In this document: positions 1 to 63,263 of the stretch, in pieces | Numbering within the stretch: position 1 is the first letter of the stretch | Layout: each line of letters opens with the position of its first letter | NCBI GenBank assembly: GCA_963843795.1 | Contig: CAWJLW010000006.1 | Coordinates: 3,422,375 to 3,486,374, forward strand | DNA: 64,000 bases | From: an uncultured bacterium | GTDB taxonomy: Bacteria; Armatimonadota; Abditibacteriia; Abditibacteriales; Abditibacteriaceae | Direction: 5' to 3' | Translations under genes and position numbers: made by a program | The notes under the pieces: model-generated | What the model saw: only the letters and a program-made list of their open reading frames with translations | Databases searched by the model: none | Told to the model about the DNA's origin: nothing

Positions 1-1446
1 GCCATCGTTATCGTAATCGCCAACTGCCAAACCGCGGCCGATGCGAGGCCTAACTAAATCGCCCAGCAAAGCCGTATCGGTCACTTCTTCGAACCCTTTT
101 CCCGTGTTGCGCAAAAGTTGCTTGGCCTGTTCGTAGGTCACGTCCTGTCGCCGTTGTCCGGGCAGCATTTGAACGTGTCCGTTGTTGATAATGAGGTCTT
201 TCCAGCCATCGGCGTCGTAATCGAAGAACTCGCAGCCAAATGACAAAAATTTGAGATGCGACAAGCCCAAACCGGCGCTCGCAGTCACATCTTCGAAAAC
301 TCCCGGCGCAACGCGGTGGAATAAAATATTGGGTCGCTCGGAGAAATTAGTGACATACAAACTTTCGCGTCCCGAACGATCATAATCGGCAATTGCGACG
401 CCCATGCCCGCCATCGCCTGACCATTTTCGCCAAAAGCCACGCCCGCCTCAACCGCAATATCGGTAAACGTGCCATCGCCGTTGTTACGCCACAAAAAGT
501 TGGGTGTTAAATCGTTGGCTACGAAAACGTCCATGCGGCCATCATCGTTGGCATCAACCCAAGCGACCGCCAGACCACGACCTTTTTTCGCGTTGATTCC
601 GACGCGCTGCGTGACATCGATAAAGCCGCGCGCGGTATTGTGGTAAAGTCGGTGCGGCTCGGCATCATACAACAGCGGCGAACAATAATCGCGCTTGCCA
701 TCGGGCGTTTTGCACTCACGGTCGGTTTGCCAGCTCCATTGCGAGTAATAGCACACATACAGATCCAAGCGGCCATCGTTATCGTAGTCGCCCCACGCCG
801 CGCTCGTTGCATAGCCAAACGATTTTCCCAAACCCTGAGCTTTGGTTACGTCCTGCCAGCGCCCGCTGCCGCTTTCATTGCGCAGCAAATGATTGGCACC
901 GTAAGAAGTGATGAAGAGATCGTCGTAGCCGTCGTTGTCGTAATCGGCGACCGCGACGCCCTGGCCGTAACCGAAATCGCGGTCGATGCCGGAACCTTTG
1001 GTGACATCGACAAAAGTTCCCTCGCCCTGATTGCGATACAAACGACAGAACGGTCGCGGCGCGCCGGGTTTATCGCCTGTCGGACCCGACTGCACCAGAA
1101 AAATATCCAGATCGTCGTCATTATCGAAGTCGATAAAAGCACAGCCGGGCGGCGTGCTTTCCACGTAGAAGAAATCGCCCGTGCCGCCGCTGTCGTGCTT
1201 GAAATCGATGCCCGCGCGCCCTGCGACATCAACAAACAGCGCTTTGCTTTCATCTATCTCTATACTTTCTTGATTTTTCGTGCCCGAAGTACTTGCAGGA
1301 GCCGGAACAGAGTTGGAAACCGAATTTTCGGCACTTTGTGTATCGTGCCGACAACCGGTTAACGAGCCGCTCATCAGAACAATCAATAACACTAATCCGA
1401 CAAAATTCGTTGTGCGCAGCCGATGAGGAGAAAAAACACAAATCAT
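1..1446 (-). CDS. CRTAC1/ASPIC-UnbV family FG-GAP repeat lipoprotein (3' end runs off window)
   Basis: Not in the ORF track. Manual translation from ATG 1446 gives MICVFSP...SGSLTGC (lipobox), FVDVAGRAGIDFKH and AFIDFDNDDDLDIF; the same frame reads GDYDNDG at positions 21..1. Confidence 0.85.
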   Translation of the reverse strand, partial: MICVFSPHRLRTTNFVGLVLLIVLMSGSLTGCRHDTQSAENSVSNSVPAPASTSGTKNQESIEIDESKALFVDVAGRAGIDFKHDSGGTGDFFYVESTPPGCAFIDFDNDDDLDIFLVQSGPTGDKPGAPRPFCRLYRNQGEGTFVDVTKGSGIDRDFGYGQGVAVADYDNDGYDDLFITSYGANHLLRNESGSGRWQDVTKAQGLGKSFGYATSAAWGDYDNDGRLDLYVCYYSQWSWQTDRECKTPDGKRDYCSPLLYDAEPHRLYHNTARGFIDVTQRVGINAKKGRGLAVAWVDANDDGRMDVFVANDLTPNFLWRNNGDGTFTDIAVEAGVAFGENGQAMAGMGVAIADYDRSGRESLYVTNFSERPNILFHRVAPGVFEDVTASAGLGLSHLKFLSFGCEFFDYDADGWKDLIINNGHVQMLPGQRRQDVTYEQAKQLLRNTGKGFEEVTDTALLGDLVRPRIGRGLAVGDYDNDG

Positions 1447-1491
1447 GAAAGTTCAAACGCCAACCGAGCCGCAGCCGATTTGGTGTTAAAT

Positions 1492-2874
1492 TTAGTTGGC
1501 GAAATCCGCTGTCGCGTTTCTGGGATCGAAACTATTGGCCTGGTTGCCAGAGCCCGCCGCAGCCAATTGTTGAGTGGCGCTTTGAGTACGCTCATCGCGC
1601 GGTTTCAGCATCGCAGCTTTGGTGATGTGCCAGTTTGCCTGCTGCTGATTATTTTTCTGTAGCGCACGTAAACCTTGCTGCAAATGCTGTTCATACATCT
1701 TCTCCAGACGCGCTTCGGCAGCTTTGACACGGGGATCGTTGGGCTTCAATTTTTTGGCAATTTCCAAATTCTTCTCTGCGCCCAGCGGTTGCTCCGAATC
1801 CATCAGCGCCAAAGCCAATTGCAACACGGTTTCAAAGTCTTGCGGATTATTGGCGTAACGTTGACGCAGCGAAGCCACGCGCGTGTTTTGCTTTTGCACT
1901 TCTTCAAAACGGCGCAACCATTTCTGTGCTTCGGCGGGCTGCCCGAGTTGCCGATGCGCGTTGCCCATTTCAAACAGATAAACCGGATTTGCCGTGGGCG
2001 ATTGCCCGACGATTTGCAAATTCTCGATAGCTTTTTTCGGTTCGCGCGCCCTTAGAAGGACTTTTCCCAGATACAAACGCGATACGGAATCGTTCGCGTT
2101 GATTTGCAGCGCTTTTTCCAGATCGCGCCGCGCCGCGCCCAACGATTGCGCATCGCCGCCACTTTCATATTCCACCACACCACGCATCGAATACGCCGCG
2201 CCCAATGTCGGATCAATCGAGAGTAAGCGCTCGATGAAGGGCCGCGCTTCCTCGTAGTGATTCAAGCCAATCAGCGAATCGCTGAGCAAAATGAGCGTGT
2301 CGACATTTTCCGGCTCGAGCTTGGCCAGACGCTGCAAATAGGTAAGCCGCGCTTCTTCATCGCCCTGCAATTCCAGCACTTTGACCATCACACGTAAGGC
2401 ATCGCGCGCATCGGCATCGCGCTTCAATTCCATTTCGGCATAACGCCGCGCAGCTTCATTATCTTGGAGCTTGGCCGCCGCTGCCGCCAAACCGCTATAC
2501 AAACCGACGCGGCTCGAATCCAATTTTTCGACGTGCTGCAAAGCATCGTAAGCATTTTTCCAATCGTTCAATCGCACGTAAGCCTGACCCAAACTCTGCC
2601 ACGCCTCGACATTTTGCGGACTCAATTCCACAACCCGACGCCATTCTTCAACGGCGGGCGCAACTTGGCCGCTATCGAAATACTTCTGTCCGGCTGCCAG
2701 ATGCTCGCGAATTGGTGCCTGCTGGCGTTCGCTCCAAAAATTGAAACCCCACGCCGTCGCCGCGAGTACAAACAAAATCAAGACATGCTTCAGTTGCAGA
2801 CCCGCGCGCGGTGCATCGGTAGAAACGACAGATTTGGGTGAACGCGGCGCAGCAGACATAATTAATCTTGACAA
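1492..2874 (-). CDS. Tetratricopeptide-repeat protein with N-terminal membrane anchor
   Basis: Repeated TPR-like helices (AWQSLGQAY, AYSMRGVV, SRLYLGKVLL) and a hydrophobic N-terminal segment. Start may be ATG 2859. Confidence 0.85.
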   Translation of the reverse strand: MSRLIMSAAPRSPKSVVSTDAPRAGLQLKHVLILFVLAATAWGFNFWSERQQAPIREHLAAGQKYFDSGQVAPAVEEWRRVVELSPQNVEAWQSLGQAYVRLNDWKNAYDALQHVEKLDSSRVGLYSGLAAAAAKLQDNEAARRYAEMELKRDADARDALRVMVKVLELQGDEEARLTYLQRLAKLEPENVDTLILLSDSLIGLNHYEEARPFIERLLSIDPTLGAAYSMRGVVEYESGGDAQSLGAARRDLEKALQINANDSVSRLYLGKVLLRAREPKKAIENLQIVGQSPTANPVYLFEMGNAHRQLGQPAEAQKWLRRFEEVQKQNTRVASLRQRYANNPQDFETVLQLALALMDSEQPLGAEKNLEIAKKLKPNDPRVKAAEARLEKMYEQHLQQGLRALQKNNQQQANWHITKAAMLKPRDERTQSATQQLAAAGSGNQANSFDPRNATADFAN

Positions 2875-3105
2875 ATAAGAACGGACATTAACGAAAAAGA
2901 AGTGCCATTAGTTTAAAAGATGGCGCAGTTCGCTGTTTTGTCGAATGTATCGCGATTACAATACGAAACGGGTGCTGCAAGTACCTGCGCAAGCACTTGC
3001 AGCGCGCTTTGCGCTTTCAAATCTTGTTGTGGTGCAAACTTGGTATCGTTGTACGGTTTGGTATCTGGGGAATTAACTATTGAGATGCGCGAAAATGGAA
3101 AATTT

Positions 3106-5028: not shown

Positions 5029-5090
5029 AATTTCCTGCCGCGCAAACTTCAATTTCCATTTGACATTTCCCTTTTCATTCGACATCCACC

Positions 5091-7146: not shown

Positions 7147-7169
7147 GATTGAGTCGTAAAGCCAGTGGC

Positions 7170-8304: not shown

Positions 8305-8360
8305 AAGCAAAAAGCGCGCTGCAAGTACTTGCGCAAGTACTTGCAGCGCGCTTTTTGCTT
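8305..8360. terminator. 56-bp perfect palindrome (tandem GCAAGTACTTGC doublet) downstream of clpC
   Basis: AAGCAAAAAGCGCGCT-GCAAGTACTTGC-GCAAGTACTTGC-AGCGCGCTTTTTGCTT, 16 bp after the clpC stop. Confidence 0.8.
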
Positions 8361-8376
8361 CTTGACGACGGTAGTT

Positions 8377-11236: not shown

Positions 11237-11270
11237 AATCGCCTCCCACAAGTAATTGCGGGAGGCGATT
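11237..11270 (-). terminator. Hairpin downstream of the CARF-like gene with a degenerate palindrome at its apex
   Basis: AATCGCCTCCC-ACAAGTAATTGC-GGGAGGCGATT. Confidence 0.6.
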
Positions 11271-14849: not shown

Positions 14850-16457
14850 ATGAAAGTTTTCACACCCGAACAAATGCGCGCTTTCGACAAAAGCGCCAGC
14901 GAGAAATATCAGATTCCGTCGATTGTTTTGATGGAAAACGCAGCTTTGCGCGTCGTGGAATGGCTGGAAGCCAAATGTGCACCGTTGAGCGAAAAGCGCA
15001 TCACGATTTTGTGTGGCAAGGGCAACAACGGTGGTGATGGTTTCGCCATCGCGCGCCAGCTTTTAAATTGCGGCGCGCGCGTGCAAGTACTTGCAGAAGA
15101 GATTAAGCGCGGCGGCGACGCGAAAATCAACGCGCAAATCTGGCAAAACTGCGGCGAAACCGTTTCCGACCCAGCGCAGTTGAAATTGGATTTTCGACGC
15201 GGAGATATTGTCATTGATGCGCTTTTGGGCACTGGTTTTCACGGCGAAGTGCGCGGTGATTGGCTGGAACGCGCTTTCGATGTGTTGCTTTCAGCACGTT
15301 CGCAGGATGCAAAAATCATCGCGATTGATGTGCCTTCGGGCTTGAACGCTGCGACCGGCGAGGCAGCGGGAATGTGCGTTGATGCAGATGTGACGATTTC
15401 GTTCGCCGCGCCCAAACGCGGCTTTTTCGTGCGTGATGGTTTGGCCAAATGCGGTGAAATCTGGATCGGTGACATCGGCAGCGCGCCTGCGCAGATGCAA
15501 GAAAGCAACACTAATTGTGCCTTGATTACGCGCGACTGGGCGCGCGCGCATCGCCCGCAGCGTTCGGAAGATGCACACAAAGGCGATGCCGGGCGCGCGT
15601 TGATTATCGGCGGCAGTCGCGGCATGAGCGGCGCGGTCGCATTGGCCTCGCGCGCGGCTTTGCACAGCGGCGTTGGATTATGTCTGGCGGCGGTTCCCGA
15701 TGCAATTTTAGATACGTTCGCGGCTTCAATTTTAGAAGCGACTTCGACACCATTGCCGTGCGACCGAGACGGCGCATTGCTGCCGGAAGCCTTGGCCACT
15801 TTGCGCGACAAATGGGAACCAATGCAAGTCGTCGCGCTTGGCCCCGGCGTTGGCCGCAGCGATAAGACGCAAGAACTCATTCACCAAATCGTACGCGAAT
15901 GCCCGCAGCCGTTGATAATTGACGCCGATGCACTACACGCTTTGCCCAAGATTGCCACCGAAGTGAAAGCGCGAAAAGCACCGACGATTCTTACACCGCA
16001 TCCGGGCGAAATGGGCACGTTGATGAATATTTCGGCGCACGAAGTGAACGAAAAGCGTTATGAAATCGCCGCGCAGTGTGCCGAGAAATATGGCGCGATT
16101 GTGGTATTGAAAGGCGCGCGTTCGATAGTCGCACTTCCCAAAATCGCACTTTCCGAATGCGAAAATAAAAGTTCGCTGTGGGTAAATCTCACTGGTAACG
16201 CGGGAATGGCGACTGGTGGCAGCGGCGATGCGCTAACCGGAACCATTGCGGGCATTTTAGCGCAATTGAAAGACGCTGAAACTGCGACAATTTTCAGCGT
16301 TTATCTGCATGGTTTGGCGGGCGACATCGCAGCGCACACGCGCGGCAATGGTTTGACAGCGGGCAATATTGTCGATTCTTTGCCCCCCGCGCTGTTGGAA
16401 TTGGAACGCGAATCTAGCCCGACGATGATTAATTATCGCTTGCATCTATTGGCCTGA
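14850..16457 (+). CDS. nnr: Bifunctional NAD(P)H-hydrate epimerase/dehydratase (YjeF/Nnr)
   Basis: LMENAA, CGKGNNGGDG, IDVPSG, HKGDAG, LTPHPGEM, MATGGSGD. Confidence 0.93.
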   Translation: MKVFTPEQMRAFDKSASEKYQIPSIVLMENAALRVVEWLEAKCAPLSEKRITILCGKGNNGGDGFAIARQLLNCGARVQVLAEEIKRGGDAKINAQIWQNCGETVSDPAQLKLDFRRGDIVIDALLGTGFHGEVRGDWLERAFDVLLSARSQDAKIIAIDVPSGLNAATGEAAGMCVDADVTISFAAPKRGFFVRDGLAKCGEIWIGDIGSAPAQMQESNTNCALITRDWARAHRPQRSEDAHKGDAGRALIIGGSRGMSGAVALASRAALHSGVGLCLAAVPDAILDTFAASILEATSTPLPCDRDGALLPEALATLRDKWEPMQVVALGPGVGRSDKTQELIHQIVRECPQPLIIDADALHALPKIATEVKARKAPTILTPHPGEMGTLMNISAHEVNEKRYEIAAQCAEKYGAIVVLKGARSIVALPKIALSECENKSSLWVNLTGNAGMATGGSGDALTGTIAGILAQLKDAETATIFSVYLHGLAGDIAAHTRGNGLTAGNIVDSLPPALLELERESSPTMINYRLHLLA

Positions 16458-16629: not shown

Positions 16630-19318
16630 ATGAAACTTAAATCGCCCATAAAACCCGACTTCCTTTTCGTCACATTTGGCCTTGGCGCATTGACATTTAC
16701 CGGCATCGCTCTGGTGCGCGCCGCGCCGCCGCGCAAGCCGTACGTTCCTCTCAAGCCCGCGCATCCCAACGCCAAACCGGCGTCGAAAACACCGCCACTC
16801 TCTGCGGCGCAGAAAAATGCGATAGTGCCGGTGCGCGATTTTATCAACCAGCGTTGTCTGGATTGTCATAGTACAGAAGTTCAAAAGGGCGACTTAAATC
16901 TGGAAGCCTTGAAGTTCGATTTCGCTGATCCGCGCGAATTTGCGATTTTGAGCAAAGTCCACGACCGCGTGCGCGATGGAGAAATGCCACCGCCCAAAGC
17001 CGAACAGCCCACGGTCAGCGAACGTATGGCTTTCAAAAATGCTCTCGCTCAGCAACTCATTAGTGCTGAAAATGCGCAACTGGCACCGACGGGACGCACG
17101 GTTTTGCGTCGTTTGAATCGGTATCAGTATGAAAACACGGTGCGCGATTTGTTGAGCGCGCCATGGTTGCAGTTGAAAGAAATGTTGCCCGAAGATGGGC
17201 AAATGTCACGTTTCAATACGGTCGGCGAAGCGCTAGATGTTTCGCACGTTCAAATGTCGCGCTATCTGCAAGCCGCCGATTACGCCCTCAATCAGGCCAT
17301 GGTGCCCGCCGTGGAACGTCCGGCAACCACAATCAAACGTTATTACACGCGTGACGAGGGCAGTTTTTCCGGCGCCTACGATGTCGGGCCGGATGTGCGC
17401 AGCACTTTTCCCGTGCTGGGTTCGGGACCCGATCAAGAACACCGCCGCCCGCCCTTGACCGTTGGCGATAGCAATCCCAAGCAGCGCGACGAAGAAGGTG
17501 TCGGCGTAGTTCTCAGCACTTACGAACCAACCGAAATTCGTTGGAGCCACTTCAAGGCGCCGGTCGCGGGCCGTTACCAATTGCGCTTCATGACCAATAC
17601 GATTTGGGTCGGGGCCAAGAAAGCCAAAGATTGGTGGAATCAGGATTACACCAACATCACCAAGGGCCGCCGCAGCGAGCCGATCACGATTTATTCGGAT
17701 AGAGAACCGCGTTTGTTGCGCCGTCTGGGAAGTTTCGACGCCACTCCCGAGGCTGTGCCGCACTCAATGGACGTCTGGCTTTTGAAGGGCGAAACGATTC
17801 GGCCCGATGCGGCGCGGTTTCTGCGTCCGCGTCCGGGCGCGATGCGCAATCCGTGGGCGACGCCCGAAGGCCAACCCGCAGTTTCGTTTCGTTGGATGGA
17901 AGTTGTCGGGCCGATTTACGATGAGTATCCGACAGCGGGACACAACTTGATGTTCGGTGCGATTGCCGTTGAAAGCGGTTGATAAAACGATTCAAGTCGT
18001 GCCGACTGATGCCGCCAAAGATGCGCCGCGTTTATTGCGCGCTTTTCTGACGCGCGCTTATCGCCGACCGGTCAGCGATAGCGATGTCGCGCGGTTTTTG
18101 CCGGTCGTACAAAACGCTTTGGGCGCGGGCTACAGTTTTTCGGATGCGATGATCGCCAGTTATTCCGCCGTGCTGTGCTCGCCGGGCTTTTTGTATTTCG
18201 ACGAAGCGCCTGGCCCGTTGAACGATTACGCTCTGGCCGCGCGCTTGTCGTATTTCCTGTGGAATTCGGCTCCCGATTCAACGTTGTTGGGCTTGGCCAA
18301 AAGCGGTCAATTGAAAAAACCCGACGTGTTGCGCGCGCAAACCAATCGTTTATTGAACGATTCACGTTCGCAGCGTTTTGTGGAAGCGTTTTTAGACTAC
18401 TGGCTCGATTTGCGAAAAATTAACAACAACGACGCCGACACGTTGTTATATCCCGACTACCAACTGGACGATTTGCTAGTCGAATCGAGCGTGCTGGAAA
18501 CACAAGATTTTTTCAGCGAACTGTTGAGGCAAAATCTGCCCGCAAAAAATATTGTAGCCTCGAATTTCGCGATGTTGAACGAGCGTCTGGCGAACTTGTA
18601 TGAAGTTAAAGACGACAAGGGCGGCGAAATTTCCGGTGTGAATTTGCGTCGCGTGAGTTTGCCGCCCGATTCGCCGCGCGGTGGTTTGATGACTCAGGCG
18701 AGCGTATTGAAAGTGACAGCGAACGGTACCACGACTTCGCCGGTTTTGCGCGGCGCGTGGATTATGGAGCGCATTTTGGGCGAACCTTCGCCACCGCCGC
18801 CGCCCGGCGTGCCCGCCGTCGAGCCGGATATTCGCGGCGCAGCGACGATTCGCCAACAATTGGAAAAACACCGTTCACAGTCGAGTTGCAACAGTTGCCA
18901 TCACAAAATTGATCCGGCGGGTTTCGCTCTAGAAAGCTTTGATGTGATGGGCGGCTGGCGCGATAAATATCGCGCTCTGGGTGATGGCGACGGTAAATTT
19001 CAAAAAGTCGCCGGTTTCGGGCATAACGGTGATACATTCACTTTCAGCACCGCGCTGCCAGTCGATTGTAGCGGGCAACTTCCCGACGGGCGCGCTTTCA
19101 AAGATGTGCGCGCATTGAAAGCTTTGCTGGTGCAGGACGACGCGAAATTGGCGCGAAATCTGGTGCGTCAATTGTTGATCTACGGAACAGGCGCGCCGCC
19201 GCGTTTCGCCGACCGGCCCAAAATCGAAGCGATTTTAAAGCGCACCAACGACCACGATTACGGAGTGCGCGATCTGGTGCAGGAAATTGTGCAAAGCGAA
19301 CTGTTTCGCAACAAGTAA
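16630..19318 (+). pseudogene. DUF1592/1588/1587/1595/1585 planctomycete-type cytochrome c protein, split by a +1 frameshift near 17960
   Basis: ORF 16630..17982 has CLDCH and LRRLNRYQY; ORF 17957..19318 has [19 protein letters not shown] and CNSCH. They overlap in the +1 frame. May be an assembly error rather than a true pseudogene. Confidence 0.75.
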
Positions 19319-21726: not shown

Positions 21727-21760
21727 AAAAGCACGCTGCAAGTACTTGCAGCGTGCTTTT
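21727..21760. terminator. 34-bp perfect palindrome, bidirectional terminator-like, with GCAAGTACTTGC core
   Basis: AAAAGCACGCT-GCAAGTACTTGC-AGCGTGCTTTT between convergent genes. Confidence 0.8.
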
Positions 21761-32913: not shown

Positions 32914-34107
32914 TTAACCGGCGTTATCGGATTCATTTCCTGCCGCAAGCGCGCGCGTTTCCGGTGATAACTGCCGCAATTCGTGCAACACCTGCGGCAA
33001 CAATTCCACAACCGTCGCCACGTCTTCGCTTGTATTGCCGCGCCCCAGCGAAAAGCGTGTGCCTGCGCGCGCTAAACCGACGGGTCGTCCAATCGCCAGC
33101 AGAACCGGACTCGGATCGAGGCTGCCCGCCGCGCACGCGCTGCCCGTCGAGCAGCATACGCCCGCGCGCGCGTCCAGCTCTAAAATCAAACCTTCGCCTT
33201 CGATACCTTCAAACGAAAAATTGACGATGCCCGGCACGCGTGCCGCGCCTTCGCCATTTAAAAACGCGCCACTGCAAGTACTTGTCACGCCCGCAATGAA
33301 CGCATCGCGCAACTGCTGTACGTGCGCTTCTTCGCCGTTTTTCAACGCTTGCTGCGCTAAAACCGCTGCCGCGCCCATTCCGACAATCGATGGCACATTT
33401 TCGGTTCCGGCACGCCGCCCTTTTTGCTGATGCCCACCTTCGATCAATGCGCCAAAACGCACGCCGCGCCGCACATAAGTCGCGCCCGCACCTTTTGGCC
33501 CATAAAATTTATGTGCCGAACACGTCAGCACATCGACGCCCAATTCGCGCACATTCAACGCCAGATGCCCGACCGTCTGACACGCATCGACATGAAACAA
33601 GATGCCGCGCTCGCGGCAAGTACTTGCCACGCTTTGAATCGGCTGCAGGGTGCCCATTTCATTATTCGCATGCATCAGCGAAGCCAAAATTGTGTCCTCG
33701 CGTAGCGCAGCTGCAAATTCATCGGCATCGATCACACCATTATTTTGCGGATTAACAAAAGTGATTTCAAAACCTTCATCCTGCAAGGTTTGCAGCGGGT
33801 GCATCACCGCATCGTGCTCTAAGGCGCTGGTCACGATGTGTCGACCTTGATCTTTCAAACGAGTAGCAATGTTTTTTAGGGCGTGATTATTGCCTTCGGT
33901 CGCGCCGGAGGTAAAAACGATTTCCGCCGCCCGCGCGCCGAGCAAAGTTGCGACTTGTTCGCGCGCGTTTTCGACGGCGAACTTGGCGATTTTGCCTTCG
34001 TGATGCAAGCTGGACGGGTTGCCGAAATGCGCACCGAGATACGGCAGCATCGCTTCCAAAACTTGAGCGTTGAGCGGCGTGGTAGCGGCGTGATCGAAGT
34101 AAATCAT
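32914..34107 (-). CDS. iscS: Cysteine desulfurase (NifS/IscS family)
   Basis: IYFDHAATTP, FTSGATE, SAHKFYGPKG, STGSAC. Confidence 0.93.
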   Translation of the reverse strand: MIYFDHAATTPLNAQVLEAMLPYLGAHFGNPSSLHHEGKIAKFAVENAREQVATLLGARAAEIVFTSGATEGNNHALKNIATRLKDQGRHIVTSALEHDAVMHPLQTLQDEGFEITFVNPQNNGVIDADEFAAALREDTILASLMHANNEMGTLQPIQSVASTCRERGILFHVDACQTVGHLALNVRELGVDVLTCSAHKFYGPKGAGATYVRRGVRFGALIEGGHQQKGRRAGTENVPSIVGMGAAAVLAQQALKNGEEAHVQQLRDAFIAGVTSTCSGAFLNGEGAARVPGIVNFSFEGIEGEGLILELDARAGVCCSTGSACAAGSLDPSPVLLAIGRPVGLARAGTRFSLGRGNTSEDVATVVELLPQVLHELRQLSPETRALAAGNESDNAG

Positions 34108-37170: not shown

Positions 37171-38472
37171 TTACGCTTCCGGCGCTTCACCATCTGCGCT
37201 TTCGCCATCGAAATCGGCACCGGCATCAATCAATAATTGCGCGGTTTGTGCGACTGACTCTTCAAACGCGGTCGCGGCCCATTCGATTTGCTCATCATTA
37301 ATCATCAGCGGCGGCTCGAAGCGCGTTACGGTCGCATTATTAAACGTATAGGGCACGACCAAAACATCGCGTTGCGCCATTCCGGACAAGACCAAACCGG
37401 TAATATCTTCGTGGCCAAATTCGACGCCGATCATCAGGCCGCGCCCGCGCACATCTTTCACGCACTGCGGATATTTGTTTTGCGTGGCTTTCAAGCGCGC
37501 CATCAATTTTTCGCCCTGCACGCGCGAACTTTCCACCAAGTTTTCCTCTGCAAGTACTTGCAGAGCCGCCAACGCCGCCACGCACGCCAGCGGATTGCCG
37601 CCGAAGGTCGTCGAATGAATCAGCGGGTTTTCCTGCCAGAATTCCCAAACATGAGGCCGCGCCACGACTGCGCCAATTGGCACACACGCACCGCTGAGGG
37701 CTTTGGCCAGCAACAACATATCGGGCACCACGCCCGCATGTTCGCACGCCCACATTTTGCCGGTGCGGCCCAAACCACACTGAACTTCGTCCAGCACTAA
37801 AAGCGCGCCGTGCGTGTCGCATAATTCGCGCGCGCGGCGCAGATATTCATCGCTTGCGACGTGAATGCCGCCTTCGCCTTGCACCGGTTCGACCAAAAAC
37901 GCGGCGACGGTTTCATCAATCGCAGCTTCCAGCGCTTCAATATCGTTGAAGGGAATTAAGGTGCAATCATTAATGAGCGGGGCGAAAGGTTTTTTGTATT
38001 TGTCGCGGCCCGAAACCGAAAGCGCGCCCAGCGTTTTGCCGTGATAAGCGCCTTCGGTGGAGACGAGTTTGGTGCGTCCGGTCGTGATGCGGGCGAATTT
38101 GATGGCGGCTTCGGCGGCTTCGGTGCCGCTGTTGCAGAAAAACGAATATTGCAAATCGCCCGGCGTAATTTCAGCTAACTTTTTCGCTAATGCAGCTTGA
38201 GGTGCGTTGAACAAAACGCGCGACGATTGCGACATTTTTTCCAACTGTTCTTTTACGGCTGCGATGACTTTGGGATGCGAATGTCCGACGCTCATCGTGC
38301 CATAACCGCCCAGACAATCGAGATATTTGCGGTCCGAAGTGTCCCAGACCAAGCAGCCAAGCGCGTGCGATTCGACGCCTTCAAAGCCGATAAATTTCAG
38401 CACTTGAGAAAGGGCGGGATTGACGTAAGTTTCAAAATCTTCGATGACTTGTTGTGAACTGAGTTGATCCAT
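37171..38472 (-). CDS. Class III PLP aminotransferase (putrescine/acetylornithine aminotransferase-like)
   Basis: YLDCLGGYG, NSGTEA, EPVQGEGG, DEVQCGLGRTG, LAKALSG, TFGGNP. Confidence 0.9.
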   Translation of the reverse strand: MDQLSSQQVIEDFETYVNPALSQVLKFIGFEGVESHALGCLVWDTSDRKYLDCLGGYGTMSVGHSHPKVIAAVKEQLEKMSQSSRVLFNAPQAALAKKLAEITPGDLQYSFFCNSGTEAAEAAIKFARITTGRTKLVSTEGAYHGKTLGALSVSGRDKYKKPFAPLINDCTLIPFNDIEALEAAIDETVAAFLVEPVQGEGGIHVASDEYLRRARELCDTHGALLVLDEVQCGLGRTGKMWACEHAGVVPDMLLLAKALSGACVPIGAVVARPHVWEFWQENPLIHSTTFGGNPLACVAALAALQVLAEENLVESSRVQGEKLMARLKATQNKYPQCVKDVRGRGLMIGVEFGHEDITGLVLSGMAQRDVLVVPYTFNNATVTRFEPPLMINDEQIEWAATAFEESVAQTAQLLIDAGADFDGESADGEAPEA

Positions 38473-38537: not shown

Positions 38538-38571
38538 AAAAGTGCGCTGCAAGTACTTGCAGCGCACTTTT
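38538..38571. repeat. 34-bp perfect palindrome with GCAAGTACTTGC core between divergent genes
   Basis: AAAAGTGCGCT-GCAAGTACTTGC-AGCGCACTTTT. Confidence 0.85.
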
Positions 38572-39004: not shown

Positions 39005-39355
39005 ATGCTACCGCGCGCCCAACGTTTAAGCGTCGCTGAATTTGAGCGCGCTTTCAATCGCAGTCGTTCCACTCGTGGCGCCACTTTAAACATGCGCGTC
39101 CATCGGCGCGACGACGGACGCGAAATCGTGCGCGCAGCGTTTGTCGTGCCCAAAAAATTGGGACGCGCGGCGTGGCGAAACAAGGTGCGTCGGCGCGTGC
39201 GCGAAGCGTATCGACAGTGCAAGTACTTGCACGACGAAAATTGCAAAATGCGCGGTTGCGATTTGATATTTTTTGCCAGTGCAAAGGCCGAAAATGCGCC
39301 GCTGCAAGTACTTGTCACTGAAATAGAGCACTTGTTGCGACGTGCGACCCGATAA
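39005..39355 (+). CDS. rnpA: Ribonuclease P protein component
   Basis: MLPRAQRL, AAFVVPKKLGRAAWRNKVRRRVRE (RNR-like motif); follows rpmH. Confidence 0.92.
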   Translation: MLPRAQRLSVAEFERAFNRSRSTRGATLNMRVHRRDDGREIVRAAFVVPKKLGRAAWRNKVRRRVREAYRQCKYLHDENCKMRGCDLIFFASAKAENAPLQVLVTEIEHLLRRATR

Positions 39356-39386
39356 AATGTGCTGCAAGTACTTGCGGAGACAAACG

Positions 39387-42696: not shown

Positions 42697-43104
42697 ATGA
42701 AACTTTTTGGTGGCACGGCTGAGAAAAAGGCGAAAAAACAAGCCACGCCATCGCGCCGCCAATGGCTGGCGTTGCGCCCGTTGCGCAATCCGCAATTAGA
42801 GTGGAGCGACGAAAACGATGCGGTGGTTTTGCACATCAAGCGCGTCAAAAATTGGAAGACGCAGATGCTAAATCTGCTGATTCCGATTCCCAGCGAACAC
42901 ACCGTCGAACTGGATAAAATCGGGACGGACGTGTGGCGTTTAATTGACGGCACGCGCAACATTGGCCAGATCGCGCGCGAGCTAGCCGAACAACACCAGA
43001 TCGAAAAACGCGAAGCCGAAGTTTCGCTGCAACAATTTTTCAAAGAATTGGGGCGACGCGGTTACATCGGCTTCGCTGTCGAATCCATTCCCGACGCGAA
43101 ATAA
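42697..43104 (+). CDS. PqqD-like (RiPP recognition element fold) protein
   Basis: VELDKIGTDVWRLIDGTRNIGQIARELAEQH...FFKELGRRGYI. Confidence 0.78.
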   Translation: MKLFGGTAEKKAKKQATPSRRQWLALRPLRNPQLEWSDENDAVVLHIKRVKNWKTQMLNLLIPIPSEHTVELDKIGTDVWRLIDGTRNIGQIARELAEQHQIEKREAEVSLQQFFKELGRRGYIGFAVESIPDAK

Positions 43105-43302
43105 AGCGCTGCAAGTACTTGCAGCGCGCTTTTGCAATTCATCATTTTATGCGCCACGTTGCAAAAACGTGATATTTGGGCATAATGAAGCGTCCAAGAA
43201 GCGTCTAAAGGCGCTGCAAGTACTTGCAGCAAGCCGCCAGTTGATAGATTTTGGGTTTTACGATTTAGCGTTGAGTTTTGGTTCAGGTTTTCAGGGAGAA
43301 TT

Positions 43303-43908
43303 ATGGCGACGATGAGTGCGGGGCCGGCAAAAATCGAGCGGCAGATTTCGCTGCCGTTCAATCAGGCGTTTAAAATTGCTTTACGCAATATCACGATTCG
43401 TCTGGGCCGCGCGATGATTACCGGTGCGGGCACGATGTTGGGCATCGCGTTCTTAATGAGCGTGTTCACGACGGCGATTCTGCAAACCGCTTCGGGAGAA
43501 GCCATCGAACTGGCGCAGCAGCAGAAAAACACCTGGTTGGTTGTGATGAGTTTGCTGGTATCGGTTGTCGGCATCACGAACTCGATGCTGATGAGCGTGA
43601 CTGAGCGCTACAAAGAAATCGGAACGATGAAATGTCTGGGCGCGCTGGACAACTTTATCGTGAAGCTGTTCTTGATCGAATCGGGGTTGCTGGGATTTTT
43701 CGGAGCGCTGTTCGGGGCTTTAATCGGCGGCGTGTTCATGTTGCTAACCAAAACCGCGTTGTTGGGTAGCGTGAATTGGCTCGATTGGATTGGCAAGCTG
43801 GTGATTTGCGTGATTATCGGCACCTTTATGAGCGTTATTGCAGCGGTTGGACCGGCGATGCGGGCGGCGAAAATGGCTCCGATTGATGCGATGCGCACCG
43901 AAGTATAA
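43303..43908 (+). CDS. FtsX-like ABC transporter permease (short)
   Basis: GITNSMLMSVTERYKEIGTMKCLGA...PAMRAAKMAPIDAMR. Confidence 0.9.
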   Translation: MATMSAGPAKIERQISLPFNQAFKIALRNITIRLGRAMITGAGTMLGIAFLMSVFTTAILQTASGEAIELAQQQKNTWLVVMSLLVSVVGITNSMLMSVTERYKEIGTMKCLGALDNFIVKLFLIESGLLGFFGALFGALIGGVFMLLTKTALLGSVNWLDWIGKLVICVIIGTFMSVIAAVGPAMRAAKMAPIDAMRTEV

Positions 43909-44743: not shown

Positions 44744-44748
44744 ATTCG

Positions 44749-44782
44749 AAAAAACGCCTGCAAGTACTTGCAGGCGTTTTTT
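44749..44782 (+). terminator. 34-bp palindromic terminator with GCAAGTACTTGC core
   Basis: AAAAAACGCCT-GCAAGTACTTGC-AGGCGTTTTTT, 5 bp after the stop codon. Confidence 0.8.
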
Positions 44783-45666: not shown

Positions 45667-46875
45667 ATGCAAAATAAAACCATCGTACTGGGCATTTGCG
45701 GCGGCATTGCGGCTTACAAAAGCTGCGATCTGGCTTCAAAACTCACTCAGCTCGGTGCGCGCGTGCAAGTCGTGATGAGCGCCAATGCCTCGCGCTTTGT
45801 GACGCCGCTCACTTTTCAAGCCCTGACTCAGCAGCCAGTTCACACTTCTCTGTGGCCCGAAAACTACGACGCAGGCGGCGTGGCCGCAGCAATGGCACAC
45901 ATTACTCTGGCCACTGAAGCCAATGCCATCCTCGTCGCGCCCGCTTCGGCCAATTGCCTGGCGCGCTTGGCGCACGGCTTGGCCGACGACCTTTTATCGA
46001 CTTTAATTCTGGCCACGCGCGCGCCGGTCTTGCTTGCGCCCGCGATGAATCCCGCAATGCTGTCGCATCCGGCCACGCAAAACAACCTGCAAGTACTTGC
46101 GGGTCTGAATTATCAAATTATCGAACCCGAAAGCGGTCGCATGGCGTGCGAACACGTTGGTCAGGGCCGTTTGCCAACGACTGAAGTTTTAATCTCGCAT
46201 CTCGAACGCGTTTTGTTCCCCACGCGCGACATGGAAAATCTGCGCGTTATAGTGACGGCTGGCCCGACGCGCGAAATGCTCGATCCGGTGCGCTACATTT
46301 CCAACCGCAGTTCGGGCCGCATGGGCTACTCCATCGCCGCCAACTGCGCGCAACGTGGCGCAAAAGTCACGCTGATTTCCGGCCCGACTGCGCTGCCCTG
46401 CCCACGAAATGTCACGCGAATTGATGTCATCAGCGCGCAAGAAATGCAGAGCGCTGTCGAAGCCAATTTCGCCCATTGCGATATTTTCATCGGCGCCGCC
46501 GCGCCTGCCGATTACCGCGCTAGCGAAATTTCTGATCAGAAAATCAAGAAATCGGGCGACGAAAAATTGCAGTTAAATTTAGTCGCTAATCCCGACATCA
46601 TCGGCGCAATCGGCGCGCGCAAACGCGACAATCAAATCGTCATCGGCTTCGCAGCTGAAACCCAAAATCTCATCGAAAACGCGCAAAATAAACTGCGCGC
46701 GAAAAACTTAGACGCCATCATCGCCAACGACGTGACACAAAGCGACGCAGGCTTCGATGTGGACACCAATCGCGTGACCTGGATTACTGCGAATGATGCG
46801 CACGAATGGCCGCTGCTGAGCAAAGATGAAGTGGCGCAACGCATCGGCGATGAAATTTTGCGATTGCGCACGTAA
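45667..46875 (+). CDS. coaBC: Phosphopantothenoylcysteine decarboxylase/ligase CoaBC
   Basis: GGIAAYK, APAMN, TAGPTRE, DPVRYISNRSSGRMG, GFAAET. Start trimmed to ATG 45667. Confidence 0.95.
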   Translation: MQNKTIVLGICGGIAAYKSCDLASKLTQLGARVQVVMSANASRFVTPLTFQALTQQPVHTSLWPENYDAGGVAAAMAHITLATEANAILVAPASANCLARLAHGLADDLLSTLILATRAPVLLAPAMNPAMLSHPATQNNLQVLAGLNYQIIEPESGRMACEHVGQGRLPTTEVLISHLERVLFPTRDMENLRVIVTAGPTREMLDPVRYISNRSSGRMGYSIAANCAQRGAKVTLISGPTALPCPRNVTRIDVISAQEMQSAVEANFAHCDIFIGAAAPADYRASEISDQKIKKSGDEKLQLNLVANPDIIGAIGARKRDNQIVIGFAAETQNLIENAQNKLRAKNLDAIIANDVTQSDAGFDVDTNRVTWITANDAHEWPLLSKDEVAQRIGDEILRLRT

Positions 46876-51596: not shown

Positions 51597-53786
51597 TTAT
51601 CGCGGTTCCAGAATCACCGTCGTGCCACTTTGAAAGACGACGCGATTGCTGTTGATAAGTTGCTGCAATTGCGCGGCGAGATAAGTGCGCCGCTCTAAGT
51701 CGCCGATGAAAATGTGGGTGATTTTCAAGCTGCGTAGCAAGTCGGGCGCGAGTTCGGGGCGCGTGTAAATCGTTTGCGCGGCCAAATGGCGCGGCTGCAT
51801 ATCGCGGCCCAAATCGGAGCCCCAGTAAAAATTGTGCTGCGTCCATCCTAGCACATCGGGAACGCCGGTCAGCGCGGCCACGCGACCATATTCACTGTAA
51901 GAATTGAAAGTGAGTTGCGGGCCGACCGCTTCCAAAACCACGCTGTCGCGCGGCGCGTTGCGACTGAGCCAAGCAATGGCCGCTTGATCATCGGGCGACA
52001 GAAATTGCGCCCCATTAAGTGAAAGCGTACCAGTTGGATTCGTGACAAAGGCGCGATTCCACACGCAAGACAAGCTGCACGAAATCGGGATGAGCCAGAA
52101 CAGCAGCCAAAACGCGCCCGCAAGTACTTGCGCCCAGCGCGGCAAGCGTTGCAACAGCCACCACGCGCCGCACGCGCCCGCACTACCCAGCAGCAGCCAC
52201 GCTTGCACACCGAATTTAAAAACTGTGTCTTGATGGCGCAAATCGTCGCCGAAAAAACCCTGAATGTAAAAGCGTGTCGGCGCGAGTAACGCCAACATTC
52301 CGCACAGCGAAAGCAAAATCCAGAAAAGTGGAAACGCTTTGTCCGCTTCAATTTCTTCCAATTTGTCGCGGCGTGGCCACAGCGCGATGATGAAAACCGC
52401 GCCCAGCAGCCACAATCCGAAAATGCCGCCCCATAACAGCAGCCAAGAGGTGCGCGGCGGCGCCCAAAACTCTTGAACCAAGCCTTGGATTTGCGCGTGA
52501 AAAGTTTGCAAATAAGGCAGCGCCAAGAGCGGTCCCAGTGAAAATGCCGCGACCAGCCACAGCAGCGCAAACCAAATCTTTTCATCACGGCGCAACGTTA
52601 AGAGCGCCGCACCCAAACCCAGCAAACCATATAACGGCGCGTCCCAGGTGTTGGTTAGTACGAAAACGCCCAGCATCACGCCGATCAGCGCAAGTGTCGC
52701 GCGTCGCGGCCAACTTTGCACGTTGCAAGTACTTGCAACGTCAATTTCGGGCGTATCGAAAACCGCGATTTGACTGTCTGCAGATTCGTGTTTTGATTCG
52801 CGCTGACGGCGCAGTTTTTTGCGTTGCGATTTGGATAAGTGCGACCAATCGGCTTCGTTTTCCGTTGCGGCTGAGGGCGCGCTTGTGGAAATTTCAGTCG
52901 ATGGAGACGACGCGAAAAGCGCCCAACACAGCGAAAAGAAAAGCGCGGCCAATGAAAGCGCATAAAAGTGGGCGTGTGCGTCGCCCAACACCATCGTGAA
53001 CAAAGGATATTCGTTGATAGTGCCTTCAATGACACGAGAAGTTTTCCACCAATCGATCAAACTGGGCGAAAGGGGCGAAAAACCGCCCTCACTCGCTTGA
53101 CGCAACGGCTCGAAATGACCGCACAAAGCGACAATTGCCATCGACCAAGCGCCACGCCACCACGACCGCGTGAGAGCCGCGCACAACGAGGTCAGCGTCG
53201 AGATGAACAGTGCACAAAAGAGCGGCTGAATCAAGTTGTAAGCGAGATAAGTGGGCGTAGCCAACGCGCGCGCCAAATTGCCAGCCATCAGCGGGCCGAA
53301 ATAATAATAGTTGGTGAACGGCGTGCCCGCCAGCCACGGATTGGAAAACGGTAGCCAACCGGCGCGCGCCGCGCTGCCCATGAGGGCTGCGTCCATGGGC
53401 TTTTCCATATCCGACACGACGGGATAACGCAGACGAATCCACAAAAAAGCCAAATACGCCAGAAGGAAAACCGCGTCCGAAACCCACAGCGCCCGCCGAT
53501 TTTCGCCTTTCCACTGCTGAAATTCGGTGGTGCGCGCGAAACGCCACCACAAAGCGATGGGCACTCCCACAAATAAAACCGGCGCCAATTGCAGCGACGC
53601 GATGTGCAAAATTGATAGCTCGAAGCTCAACAGCGTCAGTAAAACGATGAGTAGCACGCGCCCCGCCGCCAGCCCACCATCGGGCAAATTGGGGAAGATG
53701 CGCCGCGAAAAGGGCAACGCGGCGTGGCCGAGTGCGGTCGTGGCGAGAAGCCAGATAAAAATGAGGGCGATGGTCGAAAAATCCAC
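51597..53786 (-). CDS. DUF2298 / YYY-motif membrane protein (GT-C-like)
   Basis: EKPMD, NPWLAG, NYYYFG, TINEYP, DAHAH, NTWD, TVFKF. Confidence 0.85.
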   Translation of the reverse strand: MDFSTIALIFIWLLATTALGHAALPFSRRIFPNLPDGGLAAGRVLLIVLLTLLSFELSILHIASLQLAPVLFVGVPIALWWRFARTTEFQQWKGENRRALWVSDAVFLLAYLAFLWIRLRYPVVSDMEKPMDAALMGSAARAGWLPFSNPWLAGTPFTNYYYFGPLMAGNLARALATPTYLAYNLIQPLFCALFISTLTSLCAALTRSWWRGAWSMAIVALCGHFEPLRQASEGGFSPLSPSLIDWWKTSRVIEGTINEYPLFTMVLGDAHAHFYALSLAALFFSLCWALFASSPSTEISTSAPSAATENEADWSHLSKSQRKKLRRQRESKHESADSQIAVFDTPEIDVASTCNVQSWPRRATLALIGVMLGVFVLTNTWDAPLYGLLGLGAALLTLRRDEKIWFALLWLVAAFSLGPLLALPYLQTFHAQIQGLVQEFWAPPRTSWLLLWGGIFGLWLLGAVFIIALWPRRDKLEEIEADKAFPLFWILLSLCGMLALLAPTRFYIQGFFGDDLRHQDTVFKFGVQAWLLLGSAGACGAWWLLQRLPRWAQVLAGAFWLLFWLIPISCSLSCVWNRAFVTNPTGTLSLNGAQFLSPDDQAAIAWLSRNAPRDSVVLEAVGPQLTFNSYSEYGRVAALTGVPDVLGWTQHNFYWGSDLGRDMQPRHLAAQTIYTRPELAPDLLRSLKITHIFIGDLERRTYLAAQLQQLINSNRVVFQSGTTVILEPR

Positions 53787-56712: not shown

Positions 56713-56829
56713 AGTCGAAAATAGCACGGCGCCGGACGAAGAGTGCCGCGTCCGGCGCCGTGCAAAATTTGGGGCGATTTCCAATATCGCTATCTCAGAA
56801 CTGCTGCGATTTGCGTCTCGAAAGGCGCT

Positions 56830-57159: not shown

Positions 57160-57332
57160 AATTTGTTCTCCTTGACACTGCGATTCAAAGCTCGCTTGAA
57201 AATTCATTAACGAAAATCTCAAACGAAACTGCGCGCACTCCGTGCCATATCCGATAATTTTCTACTGGTTCTTATTTTCTACCGCCAAGCACCTGCAAGT
57301 ACTTGCCAACCGCTTTTCACCGAATTAACCGG

Positions 57333-58511: not shown

Positions 58512-58550
58512 AAAATGATGCTGCAAGTACTTGCAGAGCGAAATTGGAGT

Positions 58551-59366: not shown

Positions 59367-59470
59367 AATTTCGTCTCCCAATCGAAGATACAACTCAGCT
59401 TATTCTCTCACAAATCGGCCTGCAAGTACTTGCAGTGCAAAATTCAATTTGCTTTGATGAATCGAAATGT

Positions 59471-59506
59471 GAAAGCGGCTCTGCAAGTACTTGCAGAGCC
59501 GCTTTC
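59471..59506 (-). terminator. 36-bp perfect palindrome with GCAAGTACTTGC core
   Basis: GAAAGCGGCTCT-GCAAGTACTTGC-AGAGCCGCTTTC, 19 bp after the stop of the MBL gene. Confidence 0.75.
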
Positions 59507-59525
59507 GCCTACATTGATAAAAATT

Positions 59526-60404: not shown

Positions 60405-60443
60405 TTTTCACCAACCTTCCCGGCAAGTACTCGCAGCCTGCGT

Positions 60444-61868: not shown

Positions 61869-61893
61869 GATTTAAAGTGTATTCGATGGCGCT

Positions 61894-62433
61894 TTATTCA
61901 ACGGTTTCGACCGTAATGTTATCGTTGGTGTAAATACAAATCGAAGCCGCGATGCGCAGCGAATTTTCGGCGATGTCGCGCGCGCCCATTTCCGTATGAC
62001 GCATCAGAGCGGTCGCCGCAGCCTGCGCGAACGTGCCGCCGCTGCCGATGGCCGCGATACCTTCGTCGGGTTCGATCACGTCGCCGTTGCCCGACAAAAG
62101 AAACATTTCTTCCGCGTTGGCGACGATCATCAAGGCTTCCAAACGGCGTAGCGCGCGGTCGGTGCGCCAATCTTTGGTCAGTTCAACCGCAGCGCGGCGC
62201 AGTTGTCCGCGATGCTCGTCTAATTTCGATTCAAAGCGTTCAAACAGCGTGATTGCATCGGCAGCGCTGCCCGCGAAACCGGCGATGACCTGATTATTAC
62301 TGCCCAAACGCCGCACTTTTCGCGCGGAATTTTTCACGATGTGATTTTCGACGCTCACCTGTCCGTCGCCCGCAATGGCGGTTTTGCCATTGCGCCGCAC
62401 ACCGCAAATTGTTGTCGCATGAAATATCGTCAT
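61894..62433 (-). CDS. hslV: ATP-dependent protease subunit HslV
   Basis: [33 protein letters not shown]. Start trimmed to ATG 62433. Confidence 0.96.
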
Positions 62434-62481
62434 AATTTTTAAGATTGAAATAAGGCGCTGCAAGTACTTGCGGAGCGAAAA

Positions 62482-63168
62482 CTATGTTTCGCTCGGGTTA
62501 GTTTTCTTGGCATCTTCGATTTCGCGTAGTCCGCTCAGCGCGCGTTGCAGCCACATGATGACCAGAAAACGCGCGACAATAGAGAACACCATCGAGCCGT
62601 CCCACGCGACGTTGCGGTGCATCAAGTTGATAATCAAATCGGCGACGGCGATGCCTAAACCCAATGATGCGCCCCACAATTTTTCTTTGTGCAATGCCCA
62701 CGCGGCCAGAAAGAAAATTGGGCCAGTGATGAGCGGGCGCGTGACGCCGCCTTGCGCGAACAAGCTGAGACCGAGAATTAAGTCACCAACGCCGACGATA
62801 ACTAAAAGCCACATCGCGTTGCGGATGTTTTCGCGCGCTGCGATAAAAGGTACCAGGGGCAACAAATGTCCGTCGTGCCACGCCACGATTTTATGCGACG
62901 GGCGCGCGGCCAGAATTGGCTTGACGTAATCTTCATCTGCGGCGGGCAACGGTTGTCCGGGCTTTAAATCGGCAGGAATGGATTGCACACGCAAAGTTGC
63001 GCCATCGGGCAGAACGCGTTCGGCACCGGTTTCGAGTTCGTCGCGTTTGCCGACATCACCCAATTGCTTGCGGTCGAGGGAAATGGCGAACGAGCCACCC
63101 ATCAGCTCCGACACAACCGTTAAACGCGGTTTGCCCGATTCGTCTATGGCGAAAAAAGTACGTTGCAT
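62482..63168 (-). CDS. Hypothetical membrane protein
   Basis: Soluble N-terminal half plus about four C-terminal hydrophobic helices; co-oriented with neighbours. Confidence 0.65.
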   Translation of the reverse strand: MQRTFFAIDESGKPRLTVVSELMGGSFAISLDRKQLGDVGKRDELETGAERVLPDGATLRVQSIPADLKPGQPLPAADEDYVKPILAARPSHKIVAWHDGHLLPLVPFIAARENIRNAMWLLVIVGVGDLILGLSLFAQGGVTRPLITGPIFFLAAWALHKEKLWGASLGLGIAVADLIINLMHRNVAWDGSMVFSIVARFLVIMWLQRALSGLREIEDAKKTNPSET

Positions 63169-63263
63169 CGTTGAAATGAAAACCGCCGACAATCAAATGC
63201 CCTGCAAGTACTTGCAGGGCATGATTTGCGTTTCCAGTTTAGCGCTTATTGTGCATCCGGCGT

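Follow-up and report, generated by a model that had tools for sequence, protein, structure and literature searches.

The stretch of DNA analysed here (64,000 nucleotides, hereafter the window) corresponds to positions 3422375-3486374 of contig C6 in G000, the source assembly (4.30 Mb, 11 contigs) of an uncultured member of the Abditibacteriaceae, and lies just downstream of a dnaA-like gene. Scattered through it is a 12-bp palindrome, GCAAGTACTTGC, to which no strand is assigned. Pattern matching finds 39 exact copies between 7091 and 63215 (starts 7091, 8321, 8333, 11064, 13717, 14824, 15083, 16544, 19333, 21738, 22982, 25399, 28220, 30459, 31815, 32881, 33616, 35865, 37550, 38549, 39219, 39364, 41488, 43111, 43216, 44760, 46089, 47344, 48132, 52120, 52725, 53847, 55836, 57295, 58523, 59422, 59483, 62460, 63204) and 14 copies with one mismatch between 2977 and 60434 (starts 2977, 2989, 11134, 12186, 13794, 25039, 27768, 32333, 33274, 39304, 51452, 55774, 57697, 60423). 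These 53 matches at one mismatch or fewer compare with a mean of 0.11 and a maximum of 2 in 100 dinucleotide shuffles of the window. The original prediction had put the numbers at about 39 exact and about 14 near-copies, as we now count them; of the 15 near-copy positions that it listed, 13 carry one mismatch and two, at 1285-1296 and 11248-11259, carry two mismatches, while the copy at 57697 was omitted. Its division of the exact copies into about 32 intergenic and seven coding ones shifts to 33 and 6 of 39 when recounted with a home-made gene caller, and, as to its remark that most copies extend by a C and a G at the ends, 25 of 39 reach TGCAAGTACTTGCA and 20 of 39 reach CTGCAAGTACTTGCAG.

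The enrichment extends to the whole genome. Exact GCAAGTACTTGC occurs 2,567 times in G000, where Markov models of order 2, 4 and 6 on the motif-masked genome lead us to expect 0.19, 0.20 and 8.1 occurrences, and, rather than being limited to one contig, it is present on 11 of 11; one-mismatch copies number only 506. At a density of 0.6 per kb the copies are spread more evenly than at random (variance/mean 0.58 in 5-kb bins), with 47-83 per 100 kb along C6 (35 full bins), 30 in the island-rich first bin and 0 in the last, partial one. Density rises mildly with distance from the skew maximum (rho 0.43, p 0.01). The word is palindromic and its copies are not confined to origin or terminus, and we therefore rejected an identity with Chi, KOPS (FtsK-orienting polar sequences), matS or parS. 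Contigs from a short-read run, X1, span 33478-33808 and 43099-43443 with 0 differences and bridge the copies at 33616 and 43216. Note that X1 may be the source sample of the assembly, so that independent support comes from further genomes and from metagenome assemblies, which contain this word or related ones; the presence on all contigs, the short-read contigs and the metagenome occurrence together rule out an assembly artefact. A search of Rfam gave 0 matches for the repeat, and its 16-mer form, searched against a genome collection without its own genome, gave at least 36 single matches in 36 different records, that is, scattered chance hits.

Only 0-3 copies of the exact 12-mer are found in any of 40 sampled relatives. 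Nevertheless, seven of 31 genomes of the class bear the motif, namely G000 and six that iterate dialects around AGTAC: CAAAGTACTTTG in G001, TCGAGTACTCGA in G009, G015 and G019, CGAGTACTCG in G012 and, in G006, RAGTACGGTCGA, which occurs as inverted pairs and as singles (AGTACGGT, 1,317 + 1,370 copies; of the 162 half-sites in 200 kb, 129 join in pairs that form a 24-bp palindrome and 33 stand alone). The word is a perfect palindrome in six of the seven and directional in G006. Across the phylum, RAGTACTY reaches 2,695-4,371 copies in six of 301 genomes and at most 396 in the others. Metagenome loci L223-L302 add two GC-rich species, K and M, which have the CAAGTACTTG core of G000 and carry AGTACT at about 1.2-1.3 per kb in loci that were chosen for the motif. 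We found no dispersed word in 200 kb of G017, which a quick ComEC tree nests in genus g6, and no iterated word in samples of 23-140 kb from G002, G003, G004, G005, G008 and G010. On that tree (from which the short G014 frame was dropped, in which G028 gave no match, and where G011 sits on a very long branch, maybe through a wrong frame) the motif label changes two to three times; the motif may have had a single origin followed by losses. Sites are shared across dialects: AGTAC lies near the same G000 column at 7 of 42 G001 coding sites (six in register), against 1% by chance, which indicates that shared ancestral sites have been re-worded.

A 58-kb temperate-phage-like contig (L391-L395) carries the G006 dialect, a sign that its host belongs to the Abditibacteriaceae; 33 half-sites were counted in its five 10-kb loci, which overlap in part. 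AT-rich phage contigs of 38% GC (L403, L422, L423, L430) hold 2-3 intergenic TGCAAGTACTTGCA per 10 kb, which may reflect either host mimicry or an independent phage operator. In G017, about 11 repeats that contain GGTCGGGTGCAG form a local array at locus L080 (G017:C44:100001-120000), which may be clustered regularly interspaced short palindromic repeats (CRISPR) or another tandem array.

Pooled over G000, each side of the core reads AGCGC followed by a T-rich run at +8 to +11, and beyond about 11 bp the flanks have no common sequence. Symmetric double changes in the core number 21, compared with 2,567 perfect sites and the 506 one-mismatch copies (which peak at position 4, with 154, and position 1, with 110), and the core is thus fixed as sequence, not as stem. 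Both palindrome halves are kept (2,567 full sites against about 110 and 101 one-sided 10-mers), which suits a dimeric reader. Relative to the 3,341 genes called in G000, 764 copies lie in coding sequence (CDS), 1,243 in co-directional, 289 in convergent and 264 in divergent spacers and 7 at contig ends, corresponding to 2.82 per kb outside genes and 0.21 per kb in CDS.

Folding also varies with gene context. At least 468 sites have nine or more extra paired bases, where about five are expected after random flank re-pairing, and such long stems are commonest at convergent sites (66%), followed by co-directional (26%) and divergent ones (12%), and are rare at the 764 coding sites (1.8%), a distribution that marks a subset of sites as terminator-like hairpins. 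Several stand in the window. Downstream of a clpC-like gene, the tandem cores at 8321 and 8333 lie within a 26-bp stem with A/T ends (8305-8360, no strand; fold z -7.8), resembling a bidirectional terminator. Cores with 11 further paired bases are found in a convergent-gene spacer at 21727-21760 (no strand, terminator-like; z -4.7), in a divergent spacer at 38538-38571 (no strand, an A/T-ended hairpin; z -5.1) and, followed by a T run as in an intrinsic terminator, at 44749-44782 on the plus strand (z -5.3). One might conclude from the excess of long stems, their frequency at convergent sites and these z-scores of -4.7 to -7.8 that the repeat is primarily an RNA element, a terminator or a processing hairpin. 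We consider this very improbable as a primary role, and largely refuted: long stems are found at just 1.8% of coding and 26% of co-directional sites, T runs are alike on both sides (antisense 400, sense 381), long stems are absent from all 91 co-directional sites of G009 and found at 15% of its 26 convergent ones, the core lacks covariation (symmetric double changes number 21, perfect sites 2,567), and the helical phasing described next is a property of double-stranded DNA. Terminator use is, judging by these patterns, a secondary role of the repeat.

In the surroundings of deep coding copies, the frequency of A/T triplets has maxima at +8 (24% against a background of about 9%), +18-20, +29-30, +39-40 and +48, with troughs in between. 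The amplitude of this 10.5-bp A/T wave is 0.28 around coding sites, compared with 0.02-0.09 for control words away from the motif (eight well-sampled sets) and 0.06 and 0.14 for small control sets of about 105 flanks; residual AGTACT sites show 0.145 at similar phase. At third codon positions, and after correction for amino acids, the observed-to-expected ratio still swings from 1.37 (+10) to 0.75 (+13), 1.27 (+20) and 0.80 (+26), with a period of 10.2 bp at synonymous positions, so that the wave is neither a protein nor an RNA effect. The background A-tract periodicity of G000, about 11.2-11.3 bp genome-wide and persisting past 100 bp, is longer than the flank period. The spacings of 149 close site pairs cluster around multiples of 10.5 bp (Rayleigh Z 20; 238 pairs and Z 29 with near-copies included). 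In the window, the core at 59471-59506 (no strand; 12 further paired bases) has another core 61 bp, or about six helical turns, upstream at 59422, and a single spacer at 39219-39375 (no strand) holds an exact copy at 39219, a one-mismatch copy at 39304 and an exact copy at 39364, spaced 85 and 60 bp apart. At 82% of sites the A/T tracts are offset from the dyad by half a turn, which holds for 48% of random positions; by standard A-tract geometry, such placement curves both arms the same way and puts the central TA step at the apex. Phased tracts and whole-turn spacing together imply that the signal acts as bent double-stranded DNA, the bend itself being predicted from sequence. In all, the element spans about 100 bp. 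It consists of an exact 12-bp core with GTAC at its centre, a G/C-rich turn and, to either side, A/T tracts that recur every 10.2-10.5 bp and should predispose the DNA to bend at the core. Among relatives, phasing beyond the first tract has the same phase in G009 (0.21 in CDS, where the random maximum is 0.128), is borderline in G001 and species K, and was not found in species M.

Might an abundant dimeric nucleoid or topology protein be responsible? It would dock on the palindrome, and the phased DNA, about 50 bp to either side, would wrap around it, organising the chromosome roughly every 1.6 kb, with purifying selection keeping the sites. The symmetric tracts (near +8, +19, +29, +39 and +48, amplitude 0.28), a synonymous-site period shorter than that of the background, close pairs whole turns apart, the half-turn offset of the tracts from the dyad at 82% of sites and the retention of both palindrome halves all agree with such a scenario, and HIP1, the highly iterated palindrome of cyanobacteria, has been linked to chromosome structure (PMC5861425). 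If this were the whole explanation, however, selection on thousands of weak sites would have to accommodate the concerted switching of dialects (6-7 of 42 G001 sites), which it does less easily than molecular drive. Moreover, no candidate protein was found (the histone fold PF00808 is present in 0 of 5 genomes), the phasing past the first tract reaches significance in G009 but is borderline in G001 and K and absent in M, and G017, nested in g6, is without the tag. We regard an architectural role, the main rival of the reading favoured below, as somewhat unlikely.

Coding copies reveal how sites come about. All six exact coding copies in the window are in frame: they encode QVLA at 15083-15094 (plus strand, gene 14850-16457), 37550-37561 (minus strand, gene 37171-38472) and 46089-46100 (plus strand, gene 45667-46875), ASTC at 33616-33627 (minus strand, gene 32914-34107; no stable hairpin, z 0.36, and bridged by a short-read contig with 0 differences), and one of each in gene 51597-53786 (52120-52736, minus strand; the copy at 52120 in the QVLA and that at 52725 in the ASTC frame). 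Genome-wide, the 764 coding copies divide 498/148/118 among the reading frames and are evenly distributed along genes, and they have marked the proteome: QVLA occurs 569 times where 37.6 are expected (15-fold) and ASTC 137 times where 3.9 are expected (35-fold), while the reversed controls are flat (ALVQ 28 vs 37.6, CTSA 3 vs 3.9). Density in the most conserved genes (at least 70% identity) is 0.08-0.10 per kb, on small counts, against about 0.2. In 77 codon alignments, each pairing a G000 site with a relative so that some sites are counted against several relatives, no consistent 12-nt insertion was found; 58 of the 77 are gap-free, and 19 have a gap within three codons, compared with 14% of random windows. 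Amino-acid identity at the motif codons is 102 of 370 where 200 are expected, which indicates that sites occupy permissive positions. The uptake signal sequences (USS) of Pasteurellaceae and DNA uptake sequences (DUS) of Neisseriaceae likewise lie at poorly conserved residues (PMC2817400).

Once present, sites persist. Species K and M share 13 of 17 and 13 of 18 sites; the unshared ones are mostly substitution differences, synonymous and missense gains among them, and one intergenic gain is aligned with a gap of 14 nt. Among 55 coding sites of G000, 26 are identical in K or M, against 359 of 5,680 (6.3%) random 8-mers, a control unmatched for codon class. These alignments indicate that sites arise by substitution. 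A mobile repeat of the repetitive extragenic palindrome (REP) or miniature inverted-repeat transposable element (MITE) type, spread by a REP-associated tyrosine transposase (RAYT, TnpA-REP), is scarcely credible in this light. It could appeal to the enrichment between genes, the one Y1_Tnp gene of G000 and the single K/M gain at the 14-nt gap, yet that gene is flanked by another, GTAG-type repeat, 30% of copies lie in frame within genes in mostly gap-free alignments, no flank sequence is common past about 11 bp, and sites are kept in place across species. The paired GTAG-type palindromes around the RAYT-like gene (L005:1095-1290, 1795-1900 and 2565-2670; G000:C6 near 752 kb) are a separate REP family. 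With this, the view in the original prediction of a lineage-specific, actively maintained signal of the HIP or uptake-sequence kind gains substance, the repeat being genome-wide, kept at homologous sites between species, born by substitution and split into dialects. Of the particular roles it listed, an RNA-processing hairpin is disfavoured and a REP or transposase origin rejected, which leaves an uptake tag or a protein-binding site; neither a paper in the literature searched nor an Rfam family matches the motif as the core of a known REP or MITE. Dialects and helically phased flanks are additions to it.

The three largest gaps in the distribution contain 0 exact copies where 15-20 are expected in each (keeping in mind that they were picked as the largest gaps, which is partly circular) and hold, as read from translations, insertion sequences, a type I restriction-modification cluster or VirB-like genes. 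The end of C6 (G000:C6:3590136-3623414), with 63% GC, VirB-like conjugation genes and no motif, may be a foreign element or a chimeric contig end. A 29-kb element in the comM gene of G009 carries 11 motif copies, compared with 11 in 11 kb of its flank. We also note that the 16S gene (C6:24228-25750, L222) is without the motif and that a signature word of the 23S gene is located some 2.96 Mb from it, near 2.985 Mb, which suggests unlinked rRNA genes in G000, and that two overlapping open reading frames at window positions 16630-19318 look like one frameshifted gene, which G001 matches as a single protein.

Thousands of exact sites born by substitution, their joint rewording and their bendable flanks imply that a sequence-specific process must be at work. 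The reading we favour, while stopping short of calling it probable, is that the repeat is a putative self-DNA tag driven by biased natural transformation, in the manner of DUS/USS or HIP1 and perhaps acting on methylated GTAC. An uptake or recombination step specific for sequence and shape would favour fragments that bear a site; point mutations toward the consensus would then spread wherever genes tolerate them (molecular drive), a change in the reader would shift the dialect, and the central GTAC would be methylated by a conserved orphan methyltransferase of the beta class. Biased transformation has been modelled to build uptake sequences (PMC7811141), and HIP1 raises transformation in a way that depends on methylation (bioRxiv 10.1101/2024.09.10.611283; PMC13756078).

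The candidate enzyme, an orphan beta-class N6/N4 methyltransferase (PF01555; C6:2517365-2518135 in G000), is encoded by 22 of the 31 class genomes, all seven motif-bearing ones included. The family placement of the organism follows from the named close relatives of this enzyme, which are proteins of Abditibacterium utsteinense, of an Abditibacteriaceae bacterium and of an Armatimonadota bin, and from its many DUF1559 prepilins. GTAC is observed at 0-0.73 of expectation in carriers and at 0.75-0.90 in a three-genome clade without the enzyme. Such depletion is a weak hint that the enzyme targets GTAC; the contrast is drawn from that one clade, and G002 and G016 are GTAC-poor without the gene. 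GTAC is almost absent from G005 and G008 (0 in 47-50 kb), G011, G014, G013 and several genomes of genus g2, so that something appears to act on it; RAGTACTY is near zero also in the unrelated genera g17 and g56. What had looked like specific avoidance of AAGTACTT in genera g2 and g5 turned out to be general GTAC avoidance, and a GTAC glycosylase of the PabI type was found in 0 of 5 genomes. That the family's enzyme methylates the central GTAC, by analogy with CtsM or methylated HIP1, seems to us possible, if on balance doubtful.

The same enzyme could also operate without any role in uptake. In the model proposed by Elhai for HIP1 (PMC4390886), the methyltransferase would mark GTAC and biased mismatch repair would lengthen the palindrome as a ratchet. 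GTAC is indeed common to all dialects, the orphan gene is present in 7 of 7 motif genomes, several sister genera are nearly devoid of GTAC, and the temperate-phage-like contig bears the G006 dialect. If repair were the driving force, though, a 4-bp target would have to specify 12-bp lineage-specific flanks and A/T phasing 50 bp away, which it does not; mismatches peak at position 4 (154) besides position 1 (110) and not at the ends only; 15 motif-negative genomes also have the enzyme; and its best structural relatives (PDB and Atlas matches) methylate other words. We judge this ratchet improbable.

Turning to the machinery that a self-DNA tag would need, the frames of comEC, dprA and comM are intact in G000, which also has a ComEA-type match (found in 5 of 5 genomes) and a pilus locus, L180 (G000:C6:385001-403000), with pilB, pilT, pilC, pilD and five pilins. 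Targeting of comM marks transformable hosts. The gene is interrupted or split in G006, G009 and G017 and lies beside serine-recombinase genes in the latter two (L371-L375, L377-L378: split by the 29-kb element in G009, truncated in G017, split across contigs in G006). We dropped the absence of dprA from motif-negative G017 as a sign of competence loss, because the adjacent topA is missing too, as expected of an assembly gap.

Several observations weigh against a transformation tag. The presence of ComEC (30 of 31 class genomes), DprA (29), PilD (29) and comM (28) does not follow that of the motif, motif-positive and motif-negative genomes have one and the same set of genes in the pilin cluster, and extra C-terminal comM fragments occur in many g2 genomes, motif-negative ones included. 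Some 14 kb of the G000 pilus locus contain about six frameshifts, where the rate outside it is at least 0.6 per 10 kb (19 in 279 loci); assembly error or decay may account for those of the pilus locus. Fifteen motif-negative genomes carry the methyltransferase (two of them as broken copies). Comparing the pilin clusters of motif-positive and motif-negative genomes revealed no motif-specific pilin, with no search aimed at the ComP family, and no reader of the palindrome emerged among the candidates examined. Known DUS and USS are non-palindromic, whereas six of seven genomes here have a palindrome, and even the directional G006 word has most half-sites (129 of 162) paired into a 24-bp palindrome. 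Phasing extends about 50 bp on each side, compared with two tracts in USS. Finally, the G006 word AAGTACGGT is a point in favour in that 8 of its 9 letters agree with the Hin-USS, AAGTGCGGT, and that it forms inverted-pair terminators as USS does (USS word: bioRxiv 10.1101/2025.06.16.659825), but the single mismatch sits in the GCGG inner core needed for uptake (PMC7811141).

How, then, does the repeat relate to systems already described? Its density and arrangement are those of uptake sequences. With DUS/USS it has in common thousands of exact copies (9-12-mers), dialects round a common core, terminator use, frame bias, placement at poorly conserved residues and scarcity in acquired DNA (bioRxiv 10.1101/2025.10.24.684340, PMC2817400, PMC7811141). 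A/T-tract flanks are a further trait shared with the Pasteurellaceae USS, whose bent AT tracts favour uptake (PMC7811141). It differs in phylum, in having 70% of its copies between genes, and in that no ComP/ComN-like receptor was identified, without a search aimed at the ComP family. HIP1 (GCGATCGC) resembles it as a palindrome found about once per kb, kept between species and tolerated in genes, with a 4-bp methylase-type core, palindromic extension, an orphan methyltransferase in the lineage and sporadic loss (PMC4390886, PMC5861425, PMC13756078, bioRxiv 10.1101/2024.09.10.611283). The word and the phylum are different, HIP1 is one word across most cyanobacteria whereas here the word changes within a genus, and the strong intergenic and terminator bias and 10-bp phased flanks set the repeat apart, such flanks being unmentioned in the HIP1 passages compared. 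The CtsM motif of Campylobacter jejuni is likewise a palindromic methylated word that serves as a self mark for uptake, methylation being presumptive in our case; it is a short degenerate methylase site, in contrast to an exact 12-mer with dialects (PMC8468864).

REP and REPIN elements, with their RAYT transposases, are short intergenic palindromes often found in terminators; the repeat has no linked transposase or insertion signature and many in-frame coding copies. We found no paper on GCAAGTACTTGC in a search that reached few subscription journals and no supplements, where lists of over-represented words could bear on novelty. Nor were papers found for Abditibacteri combined with uptake sequence or with palindrome or repeat, and none of relevance for AGTACT over-representation; queries for highly iterated palindromes outside cyanobacteria matched only papers on cyanobacteria or horizontal gene transfer, and the taxon appears in none of the matches listed for Abditibacteri with methylation or GTAC. 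The feature, in sum, is real, genome-wide and lineage-structured, and it works like DUS/USS or HIP1 while having the defining sequence of neither. By analogy with DNA-uptake sequences, the repeat has the look of a self-DNA tag not described so far. A bolder version, which we think unlikely, is that self-DNA recognition arose independently in the Abditibacteriaceae, with a reader that would see methylated GTAC at the apex of a pre-bent 100-bp loop and with palindromic, HIP-like and directional, USS-like words interconverting within a genus.

Exact words iterated by substitution to thousands of copies are known in few bacterial groups, and what HIP1 does has remained a question for three decades. 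Here, built-in controls come from five dialects, from sister genera without the motif, from a nested loss within a genus and from the coexistence of palindromic and USS-like forms. They make the reader findable and the choice between uptake and architecture testable, and the phased flanks predict a bend at GTAC, a physical feature with which any candidate reader has to be compatible. If words do interconvert within a genus, HIP1-type and uptake-sequence-type repeats would be two forms of one mechanism, and if the repeat is a self-DNA tag, the Abditibacteriaceae would extend self-DNA recognition beyond Neisseriaceae, Pasteurellaceae, Campylobacter and cyanobacteria.

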